IMG/VR virus record: IMGVR_UViG_2698536505_000016
DNA length: 8,503 nucleotides
Reading direction: 5' to 3' (one strand)
From: a virus
Lineage: Monodnaviria > Loebvirae > Hofneiviricota > Faserviricetes > Tubulavirales > Inoviridae
Shown: piece after piece, positions 101 to 8,503 of the stretch
Numbering within the stretch: position 1 is the stretch's first letter
How the letters are laid out: the number at the start of each line of letters is the position of its first letter
Translations under genes and position numbers: made by a program
The notes under the pieces: generated by a model
Databases searched by the model: none
What the model was told of the DNA's origin: nothing
What the model saw: the letters and a program-made list of their open reading frames with translations, nothing else

Positions 101-580
101 TTATATAGAAATGAAAAACTCCTCTTCATTTCTTCTTTTATAATTGTCATCCCATATGAGTTTTATTCGGTATTTAGTTTTACTTCCAAAGCTTATTCCC
201 GCTAAAATTTCAATTCCATGTTGCGGGTGTAATACCTCATATGGAAATTTATCTTCTACATCATGCATTGAAAGATATTCATTTCCATCGTTATCAGGGA
301 AATGAATCTCTATATTTTTAGCCTCAACTCTCCCTCTATTAAATATCTTGAGCCTATAGTTGTTTTTGGCTATTTTTACGAGGCGAGCACCAAGCTCAGC
401 TTTCATCTCATTAATTGCTGACTTTGTTTCTTTTTCCAGAAGCAACTTACGTAACCTGTCTTGCTCATCCTTTATAACCTTTTGTTCTCTATCGCTTTTT
501 CTCGATTTCATTTCTGACGATATGATAGTGTAAATCGATACTACAAGCGCAGCTAAAGCGATGGCATCACTTGTTGTCAT
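101..580 (-). CDS. Hypothetical membrane-anchored protein, 159 aa: N-terminal TM helix, charged coiled-coil-like segment, C-terminal domain of unknown function
   Basis: ATG at 580-578 overlaps the upstream stop as TAATG; AAGGA Shine-Dalgarno 7 nt upstream; hydrophobic N-terminus AIALAALVVSIYTIISS followed by a K/E/R-rich segment; AT-rich coding sequence by eye. Confidence 0.65.
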   Translation of the reverse strand: MTTSDAIALAALVVSIYTIISSEMKSRKSDREQKVIKDEQDRLRKLLLEKETKSAINEMKAELGARLVKIAKNNYRLKIFNRGRVEAKNIEIHFPDNDGNEYLSMHDVEDKFPYEVLHPQHGIEILAGISFGSKTKYRIKLIWDDNYKRRNEEEFFISI

Positions 581-1339: not shown

Positions 1340-1377
1340 ACAATAAAGAACGTGCAGTGTAGGTAATACTGCACGTT
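1340..1377 (-). terminator. Hairpin plus T-rich tract between the regulator gene and the membrane-protein gene; terminator or attenuator
   Basis: Perfect 8-bp inverted repeat CGTGCAGT (1351-1358) / ACTGCACG (1368-1375) with 9-nt loop; followed on the minus strand by TTCTTTATTG. Confidence 0.4.
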
Positions 1378-1394
1378 TGTACCATTCGTGGTAC

Positions 1395-2810: not shown

Positions 2811-3128
2811 ATGTCTAATTATGGTCTTTTCGTTAAGGGTAAAATGTTGGGAGCCCGCCAACGTAATAAAGTTAATGGTCAGGGCTATTATAATGAAATT
2901 GGTATTGGCCTTGAAATACCTGATGGTTTTGGTGGTACAAAGCAGGATCAAATTATTATTCGAGTTTCTCAGGCTCTCGTTAACGCAGGTCTAATGAACC
3001 AGGCGAATGCTTTCATTGGGAAATTAGTTCAAATTCCTGTCTATGTCCGTGCGTGGTCAATGGAGGGTAGGGAAGGTGTAACTTATAATGTTGCTTCCGA
3101 TGGTGGCATCGCAGAGATCAAAGGTTAA
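2811..3128 (+). CDS. Gene-V-position protein, 105 aa; putative ssDNA-binding protein by synteny, divergent from Ff gVp
   Basis: ATG at 2811 with GGAAAG Shine-Dalgarno directly after the gII stop; sits between gII and gVII; little obvious similarity to M13 gVp by eye. Confidence 0.5.
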   Translation: MSNYGLFVKGKMLGARQRNKVNGQGYYNEIGIGLEIPDGFGGTKQDQIIIRVSQALVNAGLMNQANAFIGKLVQIPVYVRAWSMEGREGVTYNVASDGGIAEIKG

Positions 3129-3130
3129 AT

Positions 3131-3217
3131 ATGGACGATGTTATTCAAATTTTGATAGCGTCTGGCATCGTTATTTCTTTTGGCCTCGGCGCGATTACTG
3201 CGGGGGTCTTTCGTTAA
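3131..3217 (+). CDS. gVII: Minor coat protein pVII, 28 aa, hydrophobic
   Basis: ATG at 3131 with AAGG upstream; product MDDVIQILIASGIVISFGLGAITAGVFR resembles M13 pVII in size and C-terminus; stop overlaps the next start as TAATG. Confidence 0.55.
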   Translation: MDDVIQILIASGIVISFGLGAITAGVFR

Positions 3218-3312
3218 TGTATATCGTTTATTTCTTCGGGGCTTATACCTTTGGTTTTGCCCTTTTCTATGCGGTCGGTTCATTTAAATCATTTTCTGAC
3301 CGATTAATGTAA
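3217..3312 (+). CDS. gIX: Minor coat protein pIX, 31 aa, hydrophobic
   Basis: ATG at 3217 overlapping the gVII stop; product MYIVYFFGAYTFGFALFYAVGSFKSFSDRLM; size and position match Ff pIX. Confidence 0.55.
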   Translation: MYIVYFFGAYTFGFALFYAVGSFKSFSDRLM

Positions 3313-3331: not shown

Positions 3332-3574
3332 ATGAAAATTCTGTCTACTGTTAAATATAAAATTGCTCTGGCTTCAACTGCGCTTTTTATTTCTGCAAGT
3401 TCTTTTGCGGCTGAAGGCGCTACAGGTGGTACTGATTATGCAGGTCAGGCAATGGATGCTTTGTTGACTCAGGCAAATGATCTCATTGGTAAAGTATGGC
3501 CTGTTGTTGTTGCTGTGGTTGGCGCTGGGCTTGCCATTCGTATTTTCAAAAAATTCTCTTCAAAAGCGGTTTGA
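3332..3574 (+). CDS. gVIII: Major coat protein pVIII precursor, 80 aa, signal peptide plus about 54-aa mature protein
   Basis: GGAG Shine-Dalgarno 8 nt upstream; likely cleavage at SFA/AEG; mature C-terminus ...[13 protein letters not shown] closely matches IKe/M13 coat protein (...LFKKF(S/T)SKA) from memory. Confidence 0.9.
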
Positions 3575-3620: not shown

Positions 3621-4931
3621 ATGAGAAGGAAAATATTAATTCTTTCCGCTGTCCTCATTTCTCCTTTTTCACATGCTGAGTCATGGGAAAGCATTACTAA
3701 ATCCACTTATCAAAGTTCTGCCTACGCTGAAAGTAAGCAAATAACCAATCAGGATGGCTCTAAGATAACGGTTTACTATATTGATGCTGCTATGCAGGCC
3801 TCCGCTTGTCAGGGTGCTAAATCCAGTGCTCAGAGTGTATTTACTCGGATTAAACCAACTTATGAGGGTATCTGGCCTGATTCTGAATTCCGTCTTGTTT
3901 TTACTGGCGATTGTACTTACAGCGATTCACCAGGGCAGAAGGATAAATATTGGTCTTTAACGGCTTATATTGTTGGTAATATTCAGCGTTCTGTTCCTGA
4001 TGAAAAACCTACTGACCCGACACCAGAAGAAATTTGTGAAGCGAAGCCGCCAGAAGAAGGTGTATTTAATAATGTTGATTCATATGATGGTGGTCGCTAT
4101 ATCTACTATAACGGCTGTGAATATGAGGCTACTGGTGTCATTGTTTGTCAGGGTGATGGTACTGTTTGCGCTGCAACATGGAAGCCTACAGGTGCTGTAG
4201 CTGACCCCTCTGATAAACCCTCACCCCCCCAAAATGGTGGTGGTGAGTCCGGCGGTGGTGAGTCCAGCGGTGGTGAGTCCGGTGGTGGTGAGTCCGGTGG
4301 TGGTGAGTCCGGTGGTGGTGAGTCCGGCGGTGGTGAGTCCGGTGGTGGTGAGTCCGGCGGTGGTGAGTCCGGTGGCGGTAGTTCTGGCGGTGGCTCTAGT
4401 GGTTCCAGTCTTTCTAAAGGTGATATTCAGTCTGCGATCGAAGGTGCTTCACCCAAAATAGCCAGCGATATTCATGATAAATTAACGGAGAAAGACACTT
4501 CATCAGATGATAAAAAAAATGCCGATGAACAAACCAGGAATAATATAAATCGTCTTGACGATTCCATTAACAATCTTACGCGGGGGGCTGGCCGTTTTGC
4601 TGACCCTTCAGGTGGTGATTCTCGTTATGGAAAGGGCGACTCTGAATTAGATGGCGCTTCTACTTTAGCTGATTCTGAATTGGGAATTGAAAAGGATTCT
4701 CACGGTGCTTTATGGGAAGCATTTTTAAATAAAGGTGCTATGCTGCCTAATTTACCCAATGGTAACGGCTGCTCTGATTTTATTATTTTTCCCGGAGAGA
4801 TTTATCAGATTGATATTGGTTGCGATAAATTACTGACTATTAAAGATGTTCTTTCATGGGTTTTTTATTGCCTTACGTTCTGGTATGTCTTTACTTCTTT
4901 AACTTCATTGCTTCGCAAAGGGGGTGAGTGA
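3621..4931 (+). CDS. gIII: Adsorption/minor coat protein pIII, 436 aa: signal peptide, Cys-containing N-terminal domains, (GGGES)n linker, C-terminal membrane anchor
   Basis: ATG at 3621 after the terminator (track start 3477 overlaps gVIII); C-terminus ...[36 protein letters not shown] resembles the M13 pIII anchor; glycine-rich linker typical of pIII. Confidence 0.85.
4236..4400 (+). repeat. Tandem 15-bp repeat array inside gIII, about 9 near-perfect and 2 degenerate units, encoding (GGGES)n
   Basis: GG(T/C)GGTGGTGAGTCC repeated head-to-tail from 4236 to 4370, in frame with gIII, then two degenerate units to 4400. Confidence 0.9.
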
Positions 4932-5272
4932 TGCCTTTATTATTAGGTATTCCTGCATTGTTGCGTTTTCTTATTGGTCTTGTTCCTTTGTTTATTGGCT
5001 ATGTGGCGAGTTTTTTAGCTCGACTTGCTACCAGAACAGGATTAATCGCCTTTGCATTGGTCGCATTAATTACAACAACTGTTACGCTTTTAATGCAGTA
5101 CCTTGCTGAGGTCATGTATAACGGTTTACCTGCTGATTTCTCCCATTTAATGGCGTCTGTATTGCCTGACCATTTTCAGGCGTGTGTTAACGTTATTATG
5201 GTTACTCGTATCAGTGTTTTTGTTTTCGATTTAAAACAAAAATTTCTTGATTATGCAAACAGGGTGATTTAA
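4931..5272 (+). CDS. gVI: Minor coat protein pVI, 113 aa
   Basis: ATG at 4931 overlaps the gIII stop (TGATG); [14 protein letters not shown]... and ...FVFDLKQKF... resemble M13 pVI (MPVLLGIPLLLRFL..., ...FIFDVKQKI...). Confidence 0.9.
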   Translation: MPLLLGIPALLRFLIGLVPLFIGYVASFLARLATRTGLIAFALVALITTTVTLLMQYLAEVMYNGLPADFSHLMASVLPDHFQACVNVIMVTRISVFVFDLKQKFLDYANRVI

Positions 5273-6367
5273 ATGGCGGTTTATGTAGTAACAGGCAAAT
5301 TAGGCTCAGGCAAGACACTTGTTAGTGTTTCCAGAATACAGGAAAGACTTGCTAAGGGTTGTCCTGTTGCCACTAATCTTGATCTTAAATTGCATAATAT
5401 GCCTATGGTTGGGCGTTATGCGAAAAAAACGCGCGTTATTCGCATTCCTGACAAGCCTTCATTAAATGATTTACTTGCTATTGGTATTGGGAATACATCT
5501 TACGATGAATCCCGTAATGGCCTCCTTGTACTTGATGAATGTGGTACTTGGTTTAATTCCCGCTCATGGGGTGATAAAGACAGACAACCTGTTATTGACT
5601 GGTTTTTACATGCCAGAAAATTAGGCTGGGATATTATATTTTTGATTCAGGATATTTCGATAATGGATAAGCAAGCTCGTCTGGCGCTTGCTGAGCATGT
5701 TGTTTATTGTCGCCGTTCAGATAAATTAAACATTCCTTTTGTTGGCTCCATTATGAATTTGGTTTCAGGGGCGAGATTTTCTTTACCAAAGGTACACTTT
5801 GGCATTGTCAAATATGGTGATAATGTTAATTCAATCACTGTTGATAAATGGATATATACAGGAAAATCTCTTTATTCTGCTTACAATACCAAACAAGCGT
5901 TCACAGATAATTATCCTCATGGCGCATTTTCGCTTTTGCCACCATTTATCACGCACGGTCAATTTTCTGTTCACAGAGGATTTAGTTATTATATGCGCCT
6001 CACTAAAATTTATTTTCGCAAATCGAACCGTCTTATATTAATGCTTTCTTTTTTGGCGCTGGGGCTTGCGTTTGGTTTCTGGCTCCAGTCTGGAAAGAAT
6101 GTTGATGAAATCTCAGCTATTAAATCTGCTTATGCTGAACAGGCGAGGGCGGTAACGCCTGATTCGTCCAGTGACTTACCCCGACTTTCTATTAATTCTT
6201 TTTCACAACTTGGCTTTGACGTTTCCGTTACGTTTGTTGATGCAAAAGGCATGAAATATCAGTATTTTGATTTGATTAAAGATGGTTATTCCGTTGATAT
6301 TAAAGATGCCTGTCGTGTTGTTATTAGAAAAGGCCGTTATTTACAGACTGTTACCTGTCAGGAGTAA
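5273..6367 (+). CDS. gI: Assembly ATPase pI (Zot-like), 364 aa, Walker A GKLGSGKT
   Basis: Start abuts the gVI stop; N-terminal about 160 aa is highly similar to M13 pI (MAVYFVTGKLGSGKTLVSV..., LLVLDECGTWFN..., AEHVVYCRR...). Confidence 0.95.
   Translation: MAVYVVTGKLGSGKTLVSVSRIQERLAKGCPVATNLDLKLHNMPMVGRYAKKTRVIRIPDKPSLNDLLAIGIGNTSYDESRNGLLVLDECGTWFNSRSWGDKDRQPVIDWFLHARKLGWDIIFLIQDISIMDKQARLALAEHVVYCRRSDKLNIPFVGSIMNLVSGARFSLPKVHFGIVKYGDNVNSITVDKWIYTGKSLYSAYNTKQAFTDNYPHGAFSLLPPFITHGQFSVHRGFSYYMRLTKIYFRKSNRLILMLSFLALGLAFGFWLQSGKNVDEISAIKSAYAEQARAVTPDSSSDLPRLSINSFSQLGFDVSVTFVDAKGMKYQYFDLIKDGYSVDIKDACRVVIRKGRYLQTVTCQE
5993..6367 (+). CDS. gXI: Candidate pXI: in-frame internal start at Met241 of pI
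   Basis: ATG at 5993 is Met241 of pI, the same position as the pXI start in M13, immediately before the predicted TM segment (MRLTKIYFRK...). Confidence 0.45.
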   Translation: MRLTKIYFRKSNRLILMLSFLALGLAFGFWLQSGKNVDEISAIKSAYAEQARAVTPDSSSDLPRLSINSFSQLGFDVSVTFVDAKGMKYQYFDLIKDGYSVDIKDACRVVIRKGRYLQTVTCQE

Positions 6368-6374
6368 TATTATT

Positions 6375-7640
6375 ATGCGCTCTGTTATTGTTGCTTTTTT
6401 ATTTGCCTGTTCATTCTGCGTTTCTGCTGAAACTGTTAATTTAAATAATTCATCTGTTCGCTCATTTGTTCAGTGGTATTCTTCAAAAACTGGCAAGCCT
6501 GTTATTGTTAATCCTGATATTAAAGGAAACGTAACCGTATTTAATGCTGATGTTAATCCAACAAATATTGATGATTTCTTTAAGTCTGTTCTGAATGCTA
6601 ACGGTTTTGTCATGCTTTCTGGCAATCCTGCGGTAGTCTCTTTGCCGTCTAAATTACCTTCACAGATGGTTTCGGATTCCGATGATTCTGATAACCAGTC
6701 TTATGATACTTTTCCTTCTGAGCCATCTTACCAGCCAGTACCTGTGGCGCTTACGGTCAGAAATTTTAAGCTGACAAAAGTTAGATCGTCCGATGTTCAG
6801 CAACTGATTAAAATTTATCTTGATTCTAATGGTGGTGGTAATGTCGTGGATTATCCAGGCAATAACTCGCTGATTGTTTCTGCGCCTGACGAGCTGCTGC
6901 CGGTTCTGTCCGATTTTATCAATTCTGTGGATGTTGCCCGCGATCAGGTTCTCATTCAGTCGCTGATGTTTGAAACCAGCTTGTCTGATGGCGTTGATTT
7001 ATCGTTTGCGGCAGGTTCTGCATCCGGTCATAAGGTTGCGGGGGGCTTTAATACTTCTGCACTGGGTAGCGCTCTTTCTACGGCGGGCGGTTCTTTTGGT
7101 ATTTTTGATGGTAACGTGTTGGCGCTGTCTCTGCGTGCTGTCCAGAGTAATTCACGCTCTAAGGTGATTTCAACGCCGCGTATTCTTACTCAGTCTGGTC
7201 AGACTGGTTACATTTCCGTAGGTAAGAATGTGCCGTTTATCACCGGAAAGGTAACGGGCGAATCTGCCGGGGTAAATAATCCGTTTCAGACTATCGAGCG
7301 TCATGATGTTGGCGTTTCTCTCAAGGTAACGCCTGTTGTCATGGGTAACGGGCAACTAGTTCTGACTATCGACACTCGCGCTGATTCAATCAGCAATGAT
7401 GATCAGGCATCCGATATTATTACTAATCAGCGCCAGATTCAGACGACAGTCCAGATTAAGGATGGTCAGACGTTGTTATTGGGAGGGCTTATCGATTCAT
7501 CGTTAAGCAATGCCGAGCGTTCAGTTCCAGTTATAAGTAAAATTCCTCTTATAGGCTGGATTTTCAGTAGCAAGGCAGACAGCAATGAACAGCGTATTAT
7601 GTATATTTTGCTTACAGCACATATCATTCGTCCACTTTGA
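6375..7640 (+). CDS. gIV: Outer-membrane secretin pIV precursor, 421 aa
   Basis: ATG at 6375 with GGAG at 6361-6364 (track start 6282 overlaps gI); signal peptide MRSVIVAFLFACSFCVSA; long conserved stretches match M13 pIV (e.g. PRILTLSGQ.G.ISVG.NVPFITG.VTGESA.VNNPFQTIER, TLLLGGL, KIPLIG). Confidence 0.95.
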   Translation: MRSVIVAFLFACSFCVSAETVNLNNSSVRSFVQWYSSKTGKPVIVNPDIKGNVTVFNADVNPTNIDDFFKSVLNANGFVMLSGNPAVVSLPSKLPSQMVSDSDDSDNQSYDTFPSEPSYQPVPVALTVRNFKLTKVRSSDVQQLIKIYLDSNGGGNVVDYPGNNSLIVSAPDELLPVLSDFINSVDVARDQVLIQSLMFETSLSDGVDLSFAAGSASGHKVAGGFNTSALGSALSTAGGSFGIFDGNVLALSLRAVQSNSRSKVISTPRILTQSGQTGYISVGKNVPFITGKVTGESAGVNNPFQTIERHDVGVSLKVTPVVMGNGQLVLTIDTRADSISNDDQASDIITNQRQIQTTVQIKDGQTLLLGGLIDSSLSNAERSVPVISKIPLIGWIFSSKADSNEQRIMYILLTAHIIRPL

Positions 7641-7682
7641 TGGATAGCGGGTAGGTGCGTGAGCCCTGCTCGCTATCCATCA
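7638..7682 (+). other. Long hairpin starting at the gIV stop codon; candidate packaging signal or origin-associated structure
   Basis: Perfect 12-bp inverted repeat TGATGGATAGCG (7638-7649) / CGCTATCCATCA (7671-7682), extendable to about 18 bp with two G-T wobbles, 9-nt loop; no T-run follows. Ff packaging signal is a hairpin just after gIV. Confidence 0.45.
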
Positions 7683-7709
7683 AATGGACATTATTGATTG
7701 GGGTAACTA

Positions 7710-8018
7710 ATGGATTCTTATGGGATTTTATCTGCTCTGGCAGAACGAACGATTACAGCGGAAGAAGCAAAAACAATGACACTTGCAGCCAGAAGTTCTT
7801 CGGCTCAGGTAAATGAAGCATCACTTGCTCTGTTACTGATTGATAATACTCTGGATGCGATCAAAGCAGCTGCCAGTGAAGGGAAAGGATACACTTTACT
7901 TCCTTCTTATGAGATTTCTGTAAAAGCCATTGATTTAGCAGAAGAATTTTTAAGGAAACAATGCGGCTATGTTATTGATAACCAGAATGGCGTAAGGACG
8001 GTCTATTGGTTTATATGA
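7710..8018 (+). CDS. Hypothetical protein, 102 aa, predicted mostly helical, no recognised motif
   Basis: ATG at 7710 with a weak G-rich Shine-Dalgarno; lies between gIV and the att region where Ff phages have only non-coding sequence. Confidence 0.5.
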   Translation: MDSYGILSALAERTITAEEAKTMTLAARSSSAQVNEASLALLLIDNTLDAIKAAASEGKGYTLLPSYEISVKAIDLAEEFLRKQCGYVIDNQNGVRTVYWFI

Positions 8019-8135
8019 TAACCCCGGACAATGACAAAACTTGCTTTTGTTAGTGTCAGGGGTTGGCCAAGCCGAACAATTCTGTTTTTTTAGCGTTATT
8101 GCTGATTCGGCGCGGCAGCATTACGAGGAGATAAA

Positions 8136-8369
8136 ATGCAATTTTTCACATCCAGCGATACTGTAATGTTATGTGCGAAGACCTGCGATCGCTGTGGTCG
8201 CCATGCGAAGACGGTGGTAGATGACATTGAGTTCAATGAGTTTCTGTCTGTTAATCACTTAGCTGGATACGGTTCAATTTTTGGTGACAGTAATCGCTTA
8301 AAACTGGATTTATGCCAACATTGCCTGAAAGACGTCCTGGGCCAGTGGATTACGGTCTGTGACCAATGA
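8136..8369 (+). CDS. Hypothetical small cysteine-rich protein, 77 aa, putative zinc-binding
   Basis: Strong GAGGAG Shine-Dalgarno 5 nt upstream of ATG at 8136; CxxC pairs at residues 17/20 and 61/64; followed by the att hairpin. Confidence 0.55.
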   Translation: MQFFTSSDTVMLCAKTCDRCGRHAKTVVDDIEFNEFLSVNHLAGYGSIFGDSNRLKLDLCQHCLKDVLGQWITVCDQ

Positions 8370-8407
8370 CGGCACCGGTAACGCCAGTTCCCGCCATCCT
8401 TACCATT

Positions 8408-8440
8408 GGTGCGCATAATGTACGACTCGTTATGTTGAAA
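8408..8440 (+). other. dif-like XerC/XerD recombination site, second copy
   Basis: Same sequence as 4-36. Confidence 0.55.
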
Positions 8441-8479
8441 AGGCCGCTGCGAAAATCGAATCCCGCAGCGGCCTCTTTA
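8441..8479 (+). terminator. Same hairpin, second copy, downstream of the 8136-8369 ORF; candidate plus-strand terminator
   Basis: Identical stem-loop followed by TCTTT on the plus strand; located about 70 nt after the stop at 8369. Confidence 0.35.
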
Positions 8480-8503
8480 GCATAACGTCATTGTGCGAAC
8501 CAA

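Follow-up and report, generated by a model that had tools for sequence, protein, structure and literature searches.

A hairpin on the gene IV stop codon as the probable packaging signal of a UPΦ-type filamentous phage

Introduction

What is the function of a strong DNA hairpin that opens on the stop codon of gene IV (gIV) in a filamentous phage genome? An original prediction, made from the sequence alone, described an 18-bp hairpin at 7638-7682, pointed out that its location right after gIV matches that of the Ff packaging signal, and considered a simple intrinsic terminator unlikely for lack of a U-tract, with a role as an origin element given as another option. The packaging signals of Ff and IKe are long hairpins located between gIV and the origin, and they act in an orientation-dependent manner (bioRxiv 10.1101/2023.12.30.573655); for other filamentous-phage signals, an effect of about 100-fold upon loss is reported in the same preprint. 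The analysis presented here indicates that the hairpin is very probably the packaging (morphogenetic) signal of a UPΦ-type phage, belonging to the class represented by IKe and I2-2, with its function transferred by homology. It is a previously unannotated instance of a well-known type of element. The register and apex shared with the 'morphogenetic signal' of IKe and I2-2, the covariation of the stem, and the + strand bias of the fold all support the packaging function that had been proposed from position.

Phage and Genome Layout

The window (the whole stretch of DNA that was analyzed, 8503 nt) has identical ends of 99 nt (1-99 = 8405-8503), and thus represents a single 8404-nt unit of an element that is either circular or repeated in tandem. 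Its + strand encodes all the genes of an Ff-like set, comprising gII (1705-2799), gV (2811-3128), gVII (3131-3217), gIX (3217-3312), gVIII (3332-3574), gIII (ending at 4931), gVI (4928-5272), gI (5273-6367), and gIV (6375-7640). The tip proteins are encoded by gVII, recognized by translation and comparison and by a PHROG match, and by gIX, of the IKe/I2-2 type and also with a PHROG match. The product of gI is a Zot-type assembly ATPase (Pfam Zot, E = 6e-41) and, by analogy, would be a component of the assembly site where the packaging signal is read. The gIV product is a secretin, with Pfam Secretin, Secretin_N, and N0 domains; the longest gIV open reading frame (ORF) begins at 6282, and the start at 6375 is that of the RefSeq annotation. 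Two cargo ORFs follow on the + strand (7710-8018 and 8136-8369), both from PHROG families of unknown function. Beyond them, a dif-like site (4-31) marks prophage junctions, and three reverse ORFs on the - strand (101-1306) belong to phage protein families of unknown function.

This gene layout agrees with the description of UPΦ901 and its relatives (Shapiro and Putonti 2020, PMC7307601), in which the morphogenesis genes are IKe/I2-2-like, genes II and V resemble those of YpfΦ, a dif site is followed by reverse-oriented ORFs, and two novel ORFs stand where IKe, I2-2, and M13 have intergenic DNA. The window can, therefore, be assigned to a filamentous phage of Enterobacteria that is of the UPΦ901 type and integrates at dif, and it contains a single unit of this phage. 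Copies of the element are arranged head to tail as a prophage array beside hipBA in E. coli KFu015, with the dif-like GGTGCGCATAATGTA at the start of each unit, and a free circular form of the same phage exists as a 7938-bp circular 'plasmid' in Salmonella.

Prophages of the UPΦ group, integrated at dif, are common in uropathogenic E. coli, Salmonella, Klebsiella, Citrobacter, and Yersinia, and no description of their cis-acting elements had been given before. A packaging signal or hairpin is nowhere mentioned in the UPΦ paper (PMC7307601), a silence that was counted against reading the hairpin as a packaging signal.

Structure of the Hairpin

Folded as single-stranded DNA (ssDNA), the segment 7630-7690 adopts one single hairpin. 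The full structure, proposed here as the packaging signal, covers 60 nt of the + strand (7630-7689) and contains 27 pairs, its 5' foot being made of the last gIV codons and the stop codon TGA (7638-7640). At its base, a 5-bp extension pairs GTCCA (7630-7634) with TGGAC (7685-7689), and C7635 is bulged. The main stem then runs for 20 bp (7636-7655 with 7665-7684, two G.T wobbles among them), with a G+C content of 58%; the same arms were returned by a repeat search as 20-nt inverted arms, 90% complementary and separated by a 9-nt gap. Above a bulged T7656, two apical pairs (7657-7658 with 7663-7664) close the loop GTGA (7659-7662). Within this structure, a 45-nt core (7638-7682), which is the covariance-model match described below, opens on the stop codon, and the conserved apex CGGGTAGGTGCGTGAGCCCTGC (7648-7669) includes the succession GG, bulged T, GC, loop, GC, CC. 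The hairpin does start on the gIV stop codon, as first described, and the 18-bp structure given at the outset is its core, the complete structure being somewhat longer.

The minimum free energy of the hairpin is -24.8 kcal/mol, against -6.3 ± 2.0 kcal/mol in 200 dinucleotide shuffles (z = -9.2), none of which folded as stably (0/200). This folding-energy calculation had been suggested as a check of the original prediction, and it confirms the hairpin. The hairpin is also the most stable 70-nt segment of the + strand, 6.4 sd under the mean of such segments. The complementary - strand folds at -20.8 kcal/mol, leaving an advantage of 4 kcal/mol for the + strand. As RNA, the segment 7620-7720 folds at -51.4 kcal/mol (z = -7.7).

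The hairpin is not followed by any contiguous T-run, the longest run in the tail ATTATTGATTGGGG being TT, as had been stated at the outset; the tail is still T-rich (ATTATTGATT, 5/8 T), a feature that is not conserved, relatives having between 1 and 5 T out of 8. The site is absent from the list produced by a terminator scan. An Rfam search of the whole window (E <= 1) gave no match at the hairpin, and two weak chance matches at the terminal hairpin.

A motif of the form CGGGT...GGTG has been described on the ascending limb of the Ff and IKe signals (bioRxiv 10.1101/2023.12.30.573655), and it is found as CGGGTAGGTG at 7648-7657, on the ascending limb of the window hairpin. CGGGT is not kept by all relatives; only GGTGCG is near-universal.

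Likeness to Annotated Packaging Signals

The closest annotated counterparts of the hairpin are found in IKe and I2-2. In the IKe RefSeq record (NC_002014), positions 6141-6196 are labelled 'stem loop structure pot. transcription termination, morphogenetic signal' and overlap the gIV stop codon (6149-6151); elsewhere, the IKe signal is given as nt 6141-6197 (bioRxiv 10.1101/2023.12.30.573655). In I2-2 (X14336), positions 2260-2330 are annotated 'morphogenetic signal' and likewise overlap the gIV stop codon (2271-2273). The hairpins of the window, IKe, and I2-2 stand in identical register on a conserved CTTTGA. A blastn-short comparison of the complete IKe intergenic region with the window gave a sole match above noise, at the apex, where IKe CGGGTAGGTGCGCTAGCCCTGC (6158-6179) and window 7648-7669 are identical at 20 of 22 positions. 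The I2-2 hairpin is 79.5% identical to that of the window over 44 nt, and is one of two non-coding similarities with I2-2.

The resemblance to IKe extends to several details. The hairpin begins a few bases before the gIV TGA, the apex (CGGGTAGGTGCG..AGCCCTGC) has the bulged T and the T.G wobble, and the C-terminus of the cognate pVII is identical to that of the window. In contrast, the lower stem differs in sequence and is broken by several internal loops in IKe, versus 20 uninterrupted pairs in the window. Past the hairpin, IKe has its minus- and plus-strand origins and the window has two cargo ORFs, the dif site, and three reverse ORFs, and the IKe replication module is unrelated to that of the window. 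With I2-2, the window shares the position of the hairpin and its apex (GGGGTAGGTGCGTTAGCCCTGCCCC), the gII type, and a second conserved hairpin, GAACGTGCAGTGTA.GTAATACTGCA (window 1348-1394). I2-2 nevertheless differs in being non-integrating and in the placement of this second element, ~340 nt past the signal versus ~2.1 kb in the window.

Hairpin A of the Ff phages (f1/M13/fd) is also a long imperfect hairpin located directly after the gIV stop codon on the + strand, with CGGGT...GGTG on its ascending limb, and this signal is read by pVII/pIX in an orientation-dependent manner. Nevertheless, it belongs to another sequence class, with an apex ...ACGCGCAGCGT... that is shared with If1, and it is missed by the IKe-class covariance model. 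The Ff loop reportedly tolerates changes (bioRxiv 10.1101/2023.12.30.573655), whereas the IKe-class apex is nearly invariant. The comparison with the IKe and Ff packaging hairpins, which had been put forward as a check, thus bears out the proposal at the level of sequence for IKe, and for Ff reveals a different class.

Relatives and Sequence Classes

Viral contigs, species-representative genomes, and metagenomes were searched for relatives with pIV as the query, and at each locus the DNA was folded from 12 nt upstream of the gIV stop codon. A strong hairpin occurs at the same place in every phage with a pIV at least about 50% identical, save one Xenorhabdus locus (L056), in which the fold reaches only -7.5 kcal/mol. 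These gIV-end hairpins are split into sequence classes. IKe, I2-2, the UPΦ group, and several uncultured relatives carry the apex GG-T-GC-G..A-GC-CC, usually in the full form GGTAGGTGCG(Y)WAGCCCTGC, and share it in near-invariant form although their pIV are only about 70% identical. An apex around GCGCAGCG is common to Ff (represented by an f1 contaminant contig), If1, and Photorhabdus prophages, and a third hairpin type is found in one Xenorhabdus prophage. As Ff, If1, and Photorhabdus prophages have a strong hairpin of another class at the same place, the position appears as a trait of the family.

The 20-mer of this IKe-class apex has 16 exact matches in 2.9 million viral contigs, 15 of which lie directly after gIV, the remaining one being a chance, hairpin-less match. 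Two other loci, L146 and L038, were picked up by a relaxed apex motif and set aside as chance matches without a hairpin. Upstream and downstream identities were also computed against 14 relatives by global alignment; they are too noisy to define a sharp breakpoint and serve as a qualitative guide only.

Covariation and Strand Bias

A plain MAFFT alignment of 68-nt segments anchored on the stop codon put the 3' arms out of place, and no more than 10 pairs could be recovered from it by RNAalifold. Another alignment was, therefore, used, in which 17 distinct hairpins from viral, genome, and metagenome contigs were anchored on the apex and extended ungapped by 18 nt outward on each side. MAFFT left these arms ungapped, so the alignment was not fitted to the stem. 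In this alignment, 93.2% of the cells form standard pairs, compared with 70.6 ± 1.7% in column shuffles, and this value was reached in 0 of 500 shuffles; sliding the registers by 1-3 columns leaves 36-44% of cells paired. Double changes affect 14 of the 20 pairs (81 cells), against 10.4 ± 1.4 pairs in the shuffles, and a separate count of covariation gave the same picture. As the 17 aligned sequences are related, the shuffle statistics overstate their independence and are not to be read as probabilities.

The four apical pairs are invariant, and the consensus that emerges from the 17 sequences consists of a near-invariant IKe-class apex (GG, bulged T, GC, a loop of 3-5 nt, GC, CC) above a lower stem that co-varies. 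A relative with a pIV 92% identical (L012) offers a simple example: its 5' arm shows only two differences (ATAG to CTGG), both of which are compensated in the 3' arm (CTAT to CCAG). Coding constraint does not explain this covariation, since nearly all of the stem is located past the stop codon.

The fold is more stable on the + strand in all 17 hairpins, by 4.4 kcal/mol on average. This is because the conserved T.G and G.T wobbles become A.C mismatches on the complementary strand; 11 of the 17 sequences have a T.G wobble as the fourth pair counted from the apex, and further G.T pairs also occur. The + strand is the strand packaged by filamentous phages, and it is also the mRNA sense. The bias excludes a minus-strand role, and fits viral ssDNA and mRNA alike.

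A covariance model built from the apex-anchored alignment matches the window hairpin on the + strand with a score of 62.8 bits (E = 3.6e-15), against 24.8 bits for the - strand, and has no other match in the window with E < 0.3. In each further IKe-class locus, it finds exactly one site, at the gIV stop codon, and it gives no match in Ff, If1, or more distant loci.

Tip Proteins as Presumed Readers

In Ff, pV leaves the hairpin uncovered, and the C-terminal ends of pVII and pIX bind it at the pI/pXI assembly site (PMC10175506). Recognition of the signal in M13 requires R33 of pVII and E29 of pIX (PMC10480500). The pVII C-terminus encoded in the window (...SFGLGAITAGVFR) is identical to that of IKe pVII, and the pIX C-terminus (...KSFSDRLM) shares with those of M13 and I2-2 an acidic residue located four positions from the end. 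With tip proteins of the IKe type, the window thus appears to carry an IKe-class signal beside IKe-class pVII and pIX, the presumed readers.

Origin and Cargo

The original prediction also noted that the hairpin is followed by coding sequence instead of the origin. This holds true, and it reflects the insertion of cargo genes and a dif site (PMC7307601). The segment between the hairpin and the candidate origin contains the ORFs 7710-8018 and 8136-8369, the dif-like site, and the reverse ORFs (101-1306); the cargo ORFs (7710-8369) occupy the place of the minus-strand origin of IKe and I2-2. Neither the viral-strand nor the minus-strand assignment is favored for the hairpin by the comparison with IKe, whose annotated origin hairpins (6333-6385, 6410-6438, and 6554-6599) are separate elements, 180-450 nt further downstream, and no IKe origin element was found in the window when the whole IKe intergenic region was used as a blastn-short query.

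The replication module of the window is unlike that of IKe and related to that of I2-2, being of the I2-2/YpfΦ type. A double hairpin at 1348-1394 (+ strand, fold z = -5.8) is conserved with the I2-2 intergenic region, where 2666-2712 (GAACGTGCAGTGTA.GTAATACTGCAACGTT) shows 85% identity with it over 48 nt. All loci covering that part of the genome have a single copy of it per phage unit, whatever the cargo, and its conservation makes it a candidate for the viral-strand origin of the I2-2/YpfΦ-type gII module. The idea that the hairpin at gIV could itself be an origin element consequently loses ground, as its IKe origin counterparts are missing and another candidate origin is available.

The distance from the signal to this candidate origin is ~2.1 kb in the window, compared with ~340 nt in I2-2, because cargo and dif have been inserted between them. 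That the same hairpin is followed by different downstream content indicates that the signal stays with the morphogenesis module and the origin with gII, with the cargo in between. On circular ssDNA, the separation between signal and origin should be irrelevant to packaging. The ~2 kb that separate the hairpin from the candidate origin, in contrast to the arrangement in Ff and IKe, were counted against the reading of the hairpin as a packaging signal.

Alternative Functions

Several other functions can be envisaged for such a structure. The most serious alternative, although quite unlikely, is an RNA element, in which a stem-loop in the gIV message would terminate or attenuate transcription (as a weak intrinsic or Rho-assisted terminator) or shield the 3' end from exonucleases, thereby setting the read-through into the 7710-8369 ORFs. 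The hairpin lies exactly at the end of the last core gene, its G+C-rich stem makes a very stable RNA fold (7620-7720, z = -7.7), its tail ATTATTGATT contains 5 T out of 8, the IKe homologue is also labelled 'pot. transcription termination', and the + strand bias suits mRNA as well as viral ssDNA. Nevertheless, the T content of the tail ranges from 1 to 5 of 8 across relatives, and, as initially argued, the lack of a contiguous U-tract and the absence of the site from the terminator scan make a simple intrinsic terminator unlikely. Above all, a terminator needs the stem alone, whereas here almost no variation is seen in the apex, the bulged T, and most of the loop; such conservation, in phages whose pIV are only about 70% identical, points to recognition by a protein. 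The hairpin is, moreover, unchanged in front of wholly different downstream sequences, the origin in IKe and cargo here. An RNA role may possibly coexist with packaging, as a second role. Less probable still is a replication element, either a hairpin priming the minus strand for host RNA polymerase on incoming ssDNA, or a part of the viral-strand origin. Filamentous phage origins are indeed hairpins of the same intergenic region, and no IKe-like minus-strand origin was found elsewhere in the window, but the IKe origins are annotated as separate hairpins and the window hairpin matches hairpin A only. Origins travel with gII, whereas this hairpin is common to phages with different replication modules (IKe versus I2-2/UPΦ), and the separate element at 1348-1394 co-occurs with the gII type of the window.

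The integration of the phage at dif, together with the identity of the apex GGTGCG to the first six bases of the dif XerC arm and the end of similarity between relatives at the hairpin foot, could suggest a recombination site, that is, a folded single-strand Xer substrate like CTXΦ attP(+), or a hotspot of cargo exchange. This is highly improbable, as only 6 of the 11 XerC-arm bases are present, with no XerD arm and no central region, a proper dif-like site marking the prophage junctions exists at 4-31, and the hairpin is equally conserved in the non-integrating IKe and I2-2. Finally, the chance that the hairpin is an accidental palindrome or a functionless selfish repeat is negligible: it has only the general frequency of short palindromes in its favor, against a fold that none of the 200 shuffles equals in stability (z = -9.2), 14 of 20 pairs that covary, a single copy in each genome, and a position that is fixed in relatives with a pIV at least about 50% identical, save the Xenorhabdus locus L056.

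Proposed Mechanism and Implications

With a packaging signal as the preferred reading, a mechanism can be outlined from what is known of Ff and IKe. In the circular ssDNA of the + strand, the segment 7630-7689, being self-complementary, would fold into a duplex hairpin, which the ssDNA-binding protein pV would leave uncoated. The hairpin would then start the exchange of pV for pVIII and set the orientation of the DNA, its segment being brought to the pVII/pIX tip, the end that would be first to emerge from the cell. Reading by sequence probably concerns the invariant apex (GG, bulged T, GC, 3-5-nt loop, GC, CC), while for the lower stem pairing alone would be required. The hairpin would be part of the morphogenesis module (gVII to gIV), and not of the replication module; its belonging to the former would explain why it stays on the gIV stop codon while the downstream DNA gave way, presumably to cargo genes, a dif site, and another type of origin. 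In the gIV mRNA, the hairpin may also slow or end transcription, as a secondary role.

A more far-reaching proposal combines three elements. The apex would be a specific recognition code for IKe-type pVII/pIX, based on sequence and not on shape alone, in contrast to the tolerance of the Ff loop; the foot of the hairpin would form a fixed 3' boundary of the morphogenesis module, behind which cargo (origins, accessory genes, dif) is swapped; and the hairpin would double as a read-through attenuator. Taken as a whole, this proposal is speculative and rather doubtful.

In practical terms, a packaging signal at this site would make a defined element of 45-60 nt available for transduction assays and for phagemids based on UPΦ or IKe, and would predict which end of the genome occupies the virion tip. 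The alignment yields the first comparative consensus for the IKe-class signal, with an invariant apex above a free lower stem. From an evolutionary viewpoint, the signal would travel with the morphogenesis genes as replication modules and cargo are exchanged, which gives a clear picture of the place where cargo is inserted.

The formation of the hairpin in the gIV mRNA as well (-51 kcal/mol, 7620-7720), with its tail of 5/8 T, was a further observation counted against its reading as a packaging signal. A cis-acting hairpin is also present in another dif-integrating inovirus. Without sequence relation to that of the window, it differs in being a short GC stem of 7-8 bp located inside the replication gene, which works in either orientation and in which the loop bases are essential (bioRxiv 10.1101/2023.12.30.573655).

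Termini of the Element and the dif-Like Site

The two ends of the window are the same sequence, positions 1-99 being identical to 8405-8503. These 99-nt ends carry a dif-like XerC arm (GGTGCGCATAATGTA, 4-18), followed, after 11 nt rather than 6 nt, by a XerD-like arm (TTATGTTGAAA). A symmetric hairpin with 24-nt arms (24-83), also within the identical ends, lies 3' of the XerC arm. Folding gave this hairpin equal stability on the plus and minus strands, and A-rich and T-rich tracts border it. Two ORFs, 8136-8369 (+) and 101-580 (-), converge on this hairpin, which looks like a bidirectional terminator between them.

The dif-adjacent segment of about 92 nt (8412-8503) has copies with 90-99% identity on over 400 plasmids, most of which are conjugative IncF plasmids from E. 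coli and Klebsiella. The plasmid copies sit in unannotated DNA, and could be either a Xer site belonging to the plasmids or what is left of a phage integration event.

Candidate Origins and Other Hairpins

Outside the packaging-signal hairpin, a double hairpin at 1348-1394, conserved with the intergenic region of the filamentous phage I2-2, is a candidate for the viral-strand origin. Directly 5' of gII, several GAACTCA repeats (1620-1705) may be binding sites for the gII protein or for a repressor.

Another strong hairpin (8020-8065) is located directly 3' of the cargo ORF 7710-8018. It folds at about -16 kcal/mol in the window, and its counterpart in a related locus (L017) forms a longer fold, at -26.7 kcal/mol. 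A run of seven T follows about 25 nt downstream. Hairpin 8020-8065 could be a terminator or else a candidate minus-strand origin.

Gene III Repeats and the Start of gIV

Gene III contains approximately eleven 15-nt repeats (4191-4415; GGTGGTGGTGAGTCC), encoding GGGES, and the repeat number of this gene is known to differ between UPΦ strains (PMC7307601). At its longest, the gIV ORF extends back into gI, to a start at 6282. The RefSeq secretin start is placed at 6375, just past the gI stop at 6367, and agrees better with the Ff gene layout.

Related Genomes and Probably Misassigned Sequences

Although its database entry calls it an unnamed plasmid, a 7938-bp circular sequence from Salmonella enterica (L177; NZ_CP140410.1) comprises the whole genome of a UPΦ-type phage, and presumably represents the replicative form of such a phage. 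It harbors a Doc-family toxin gene where the window has its reverse ORFs, and the same Doc cargo occurs in the prophage array of E. coli KFu015.

Filamentous phage DNA was also encountered within assemblies of unlikely hosts (loci L057, L051, L060, and L069). A 'SAR11 cluster bacterium' contig contains f1/M13 vector sequence, a 'Candidatus Nanosynbacter' MAG contains UPΦ, an 'Actinomadura monticuli' assembly contains an If1-like phage, and a 'Paenibacillus tengchongensis' assembly holds a filamentous phage fragment (coverage 0.57). The phage DNA at these four loci most likely results from contamination or mis-binning.
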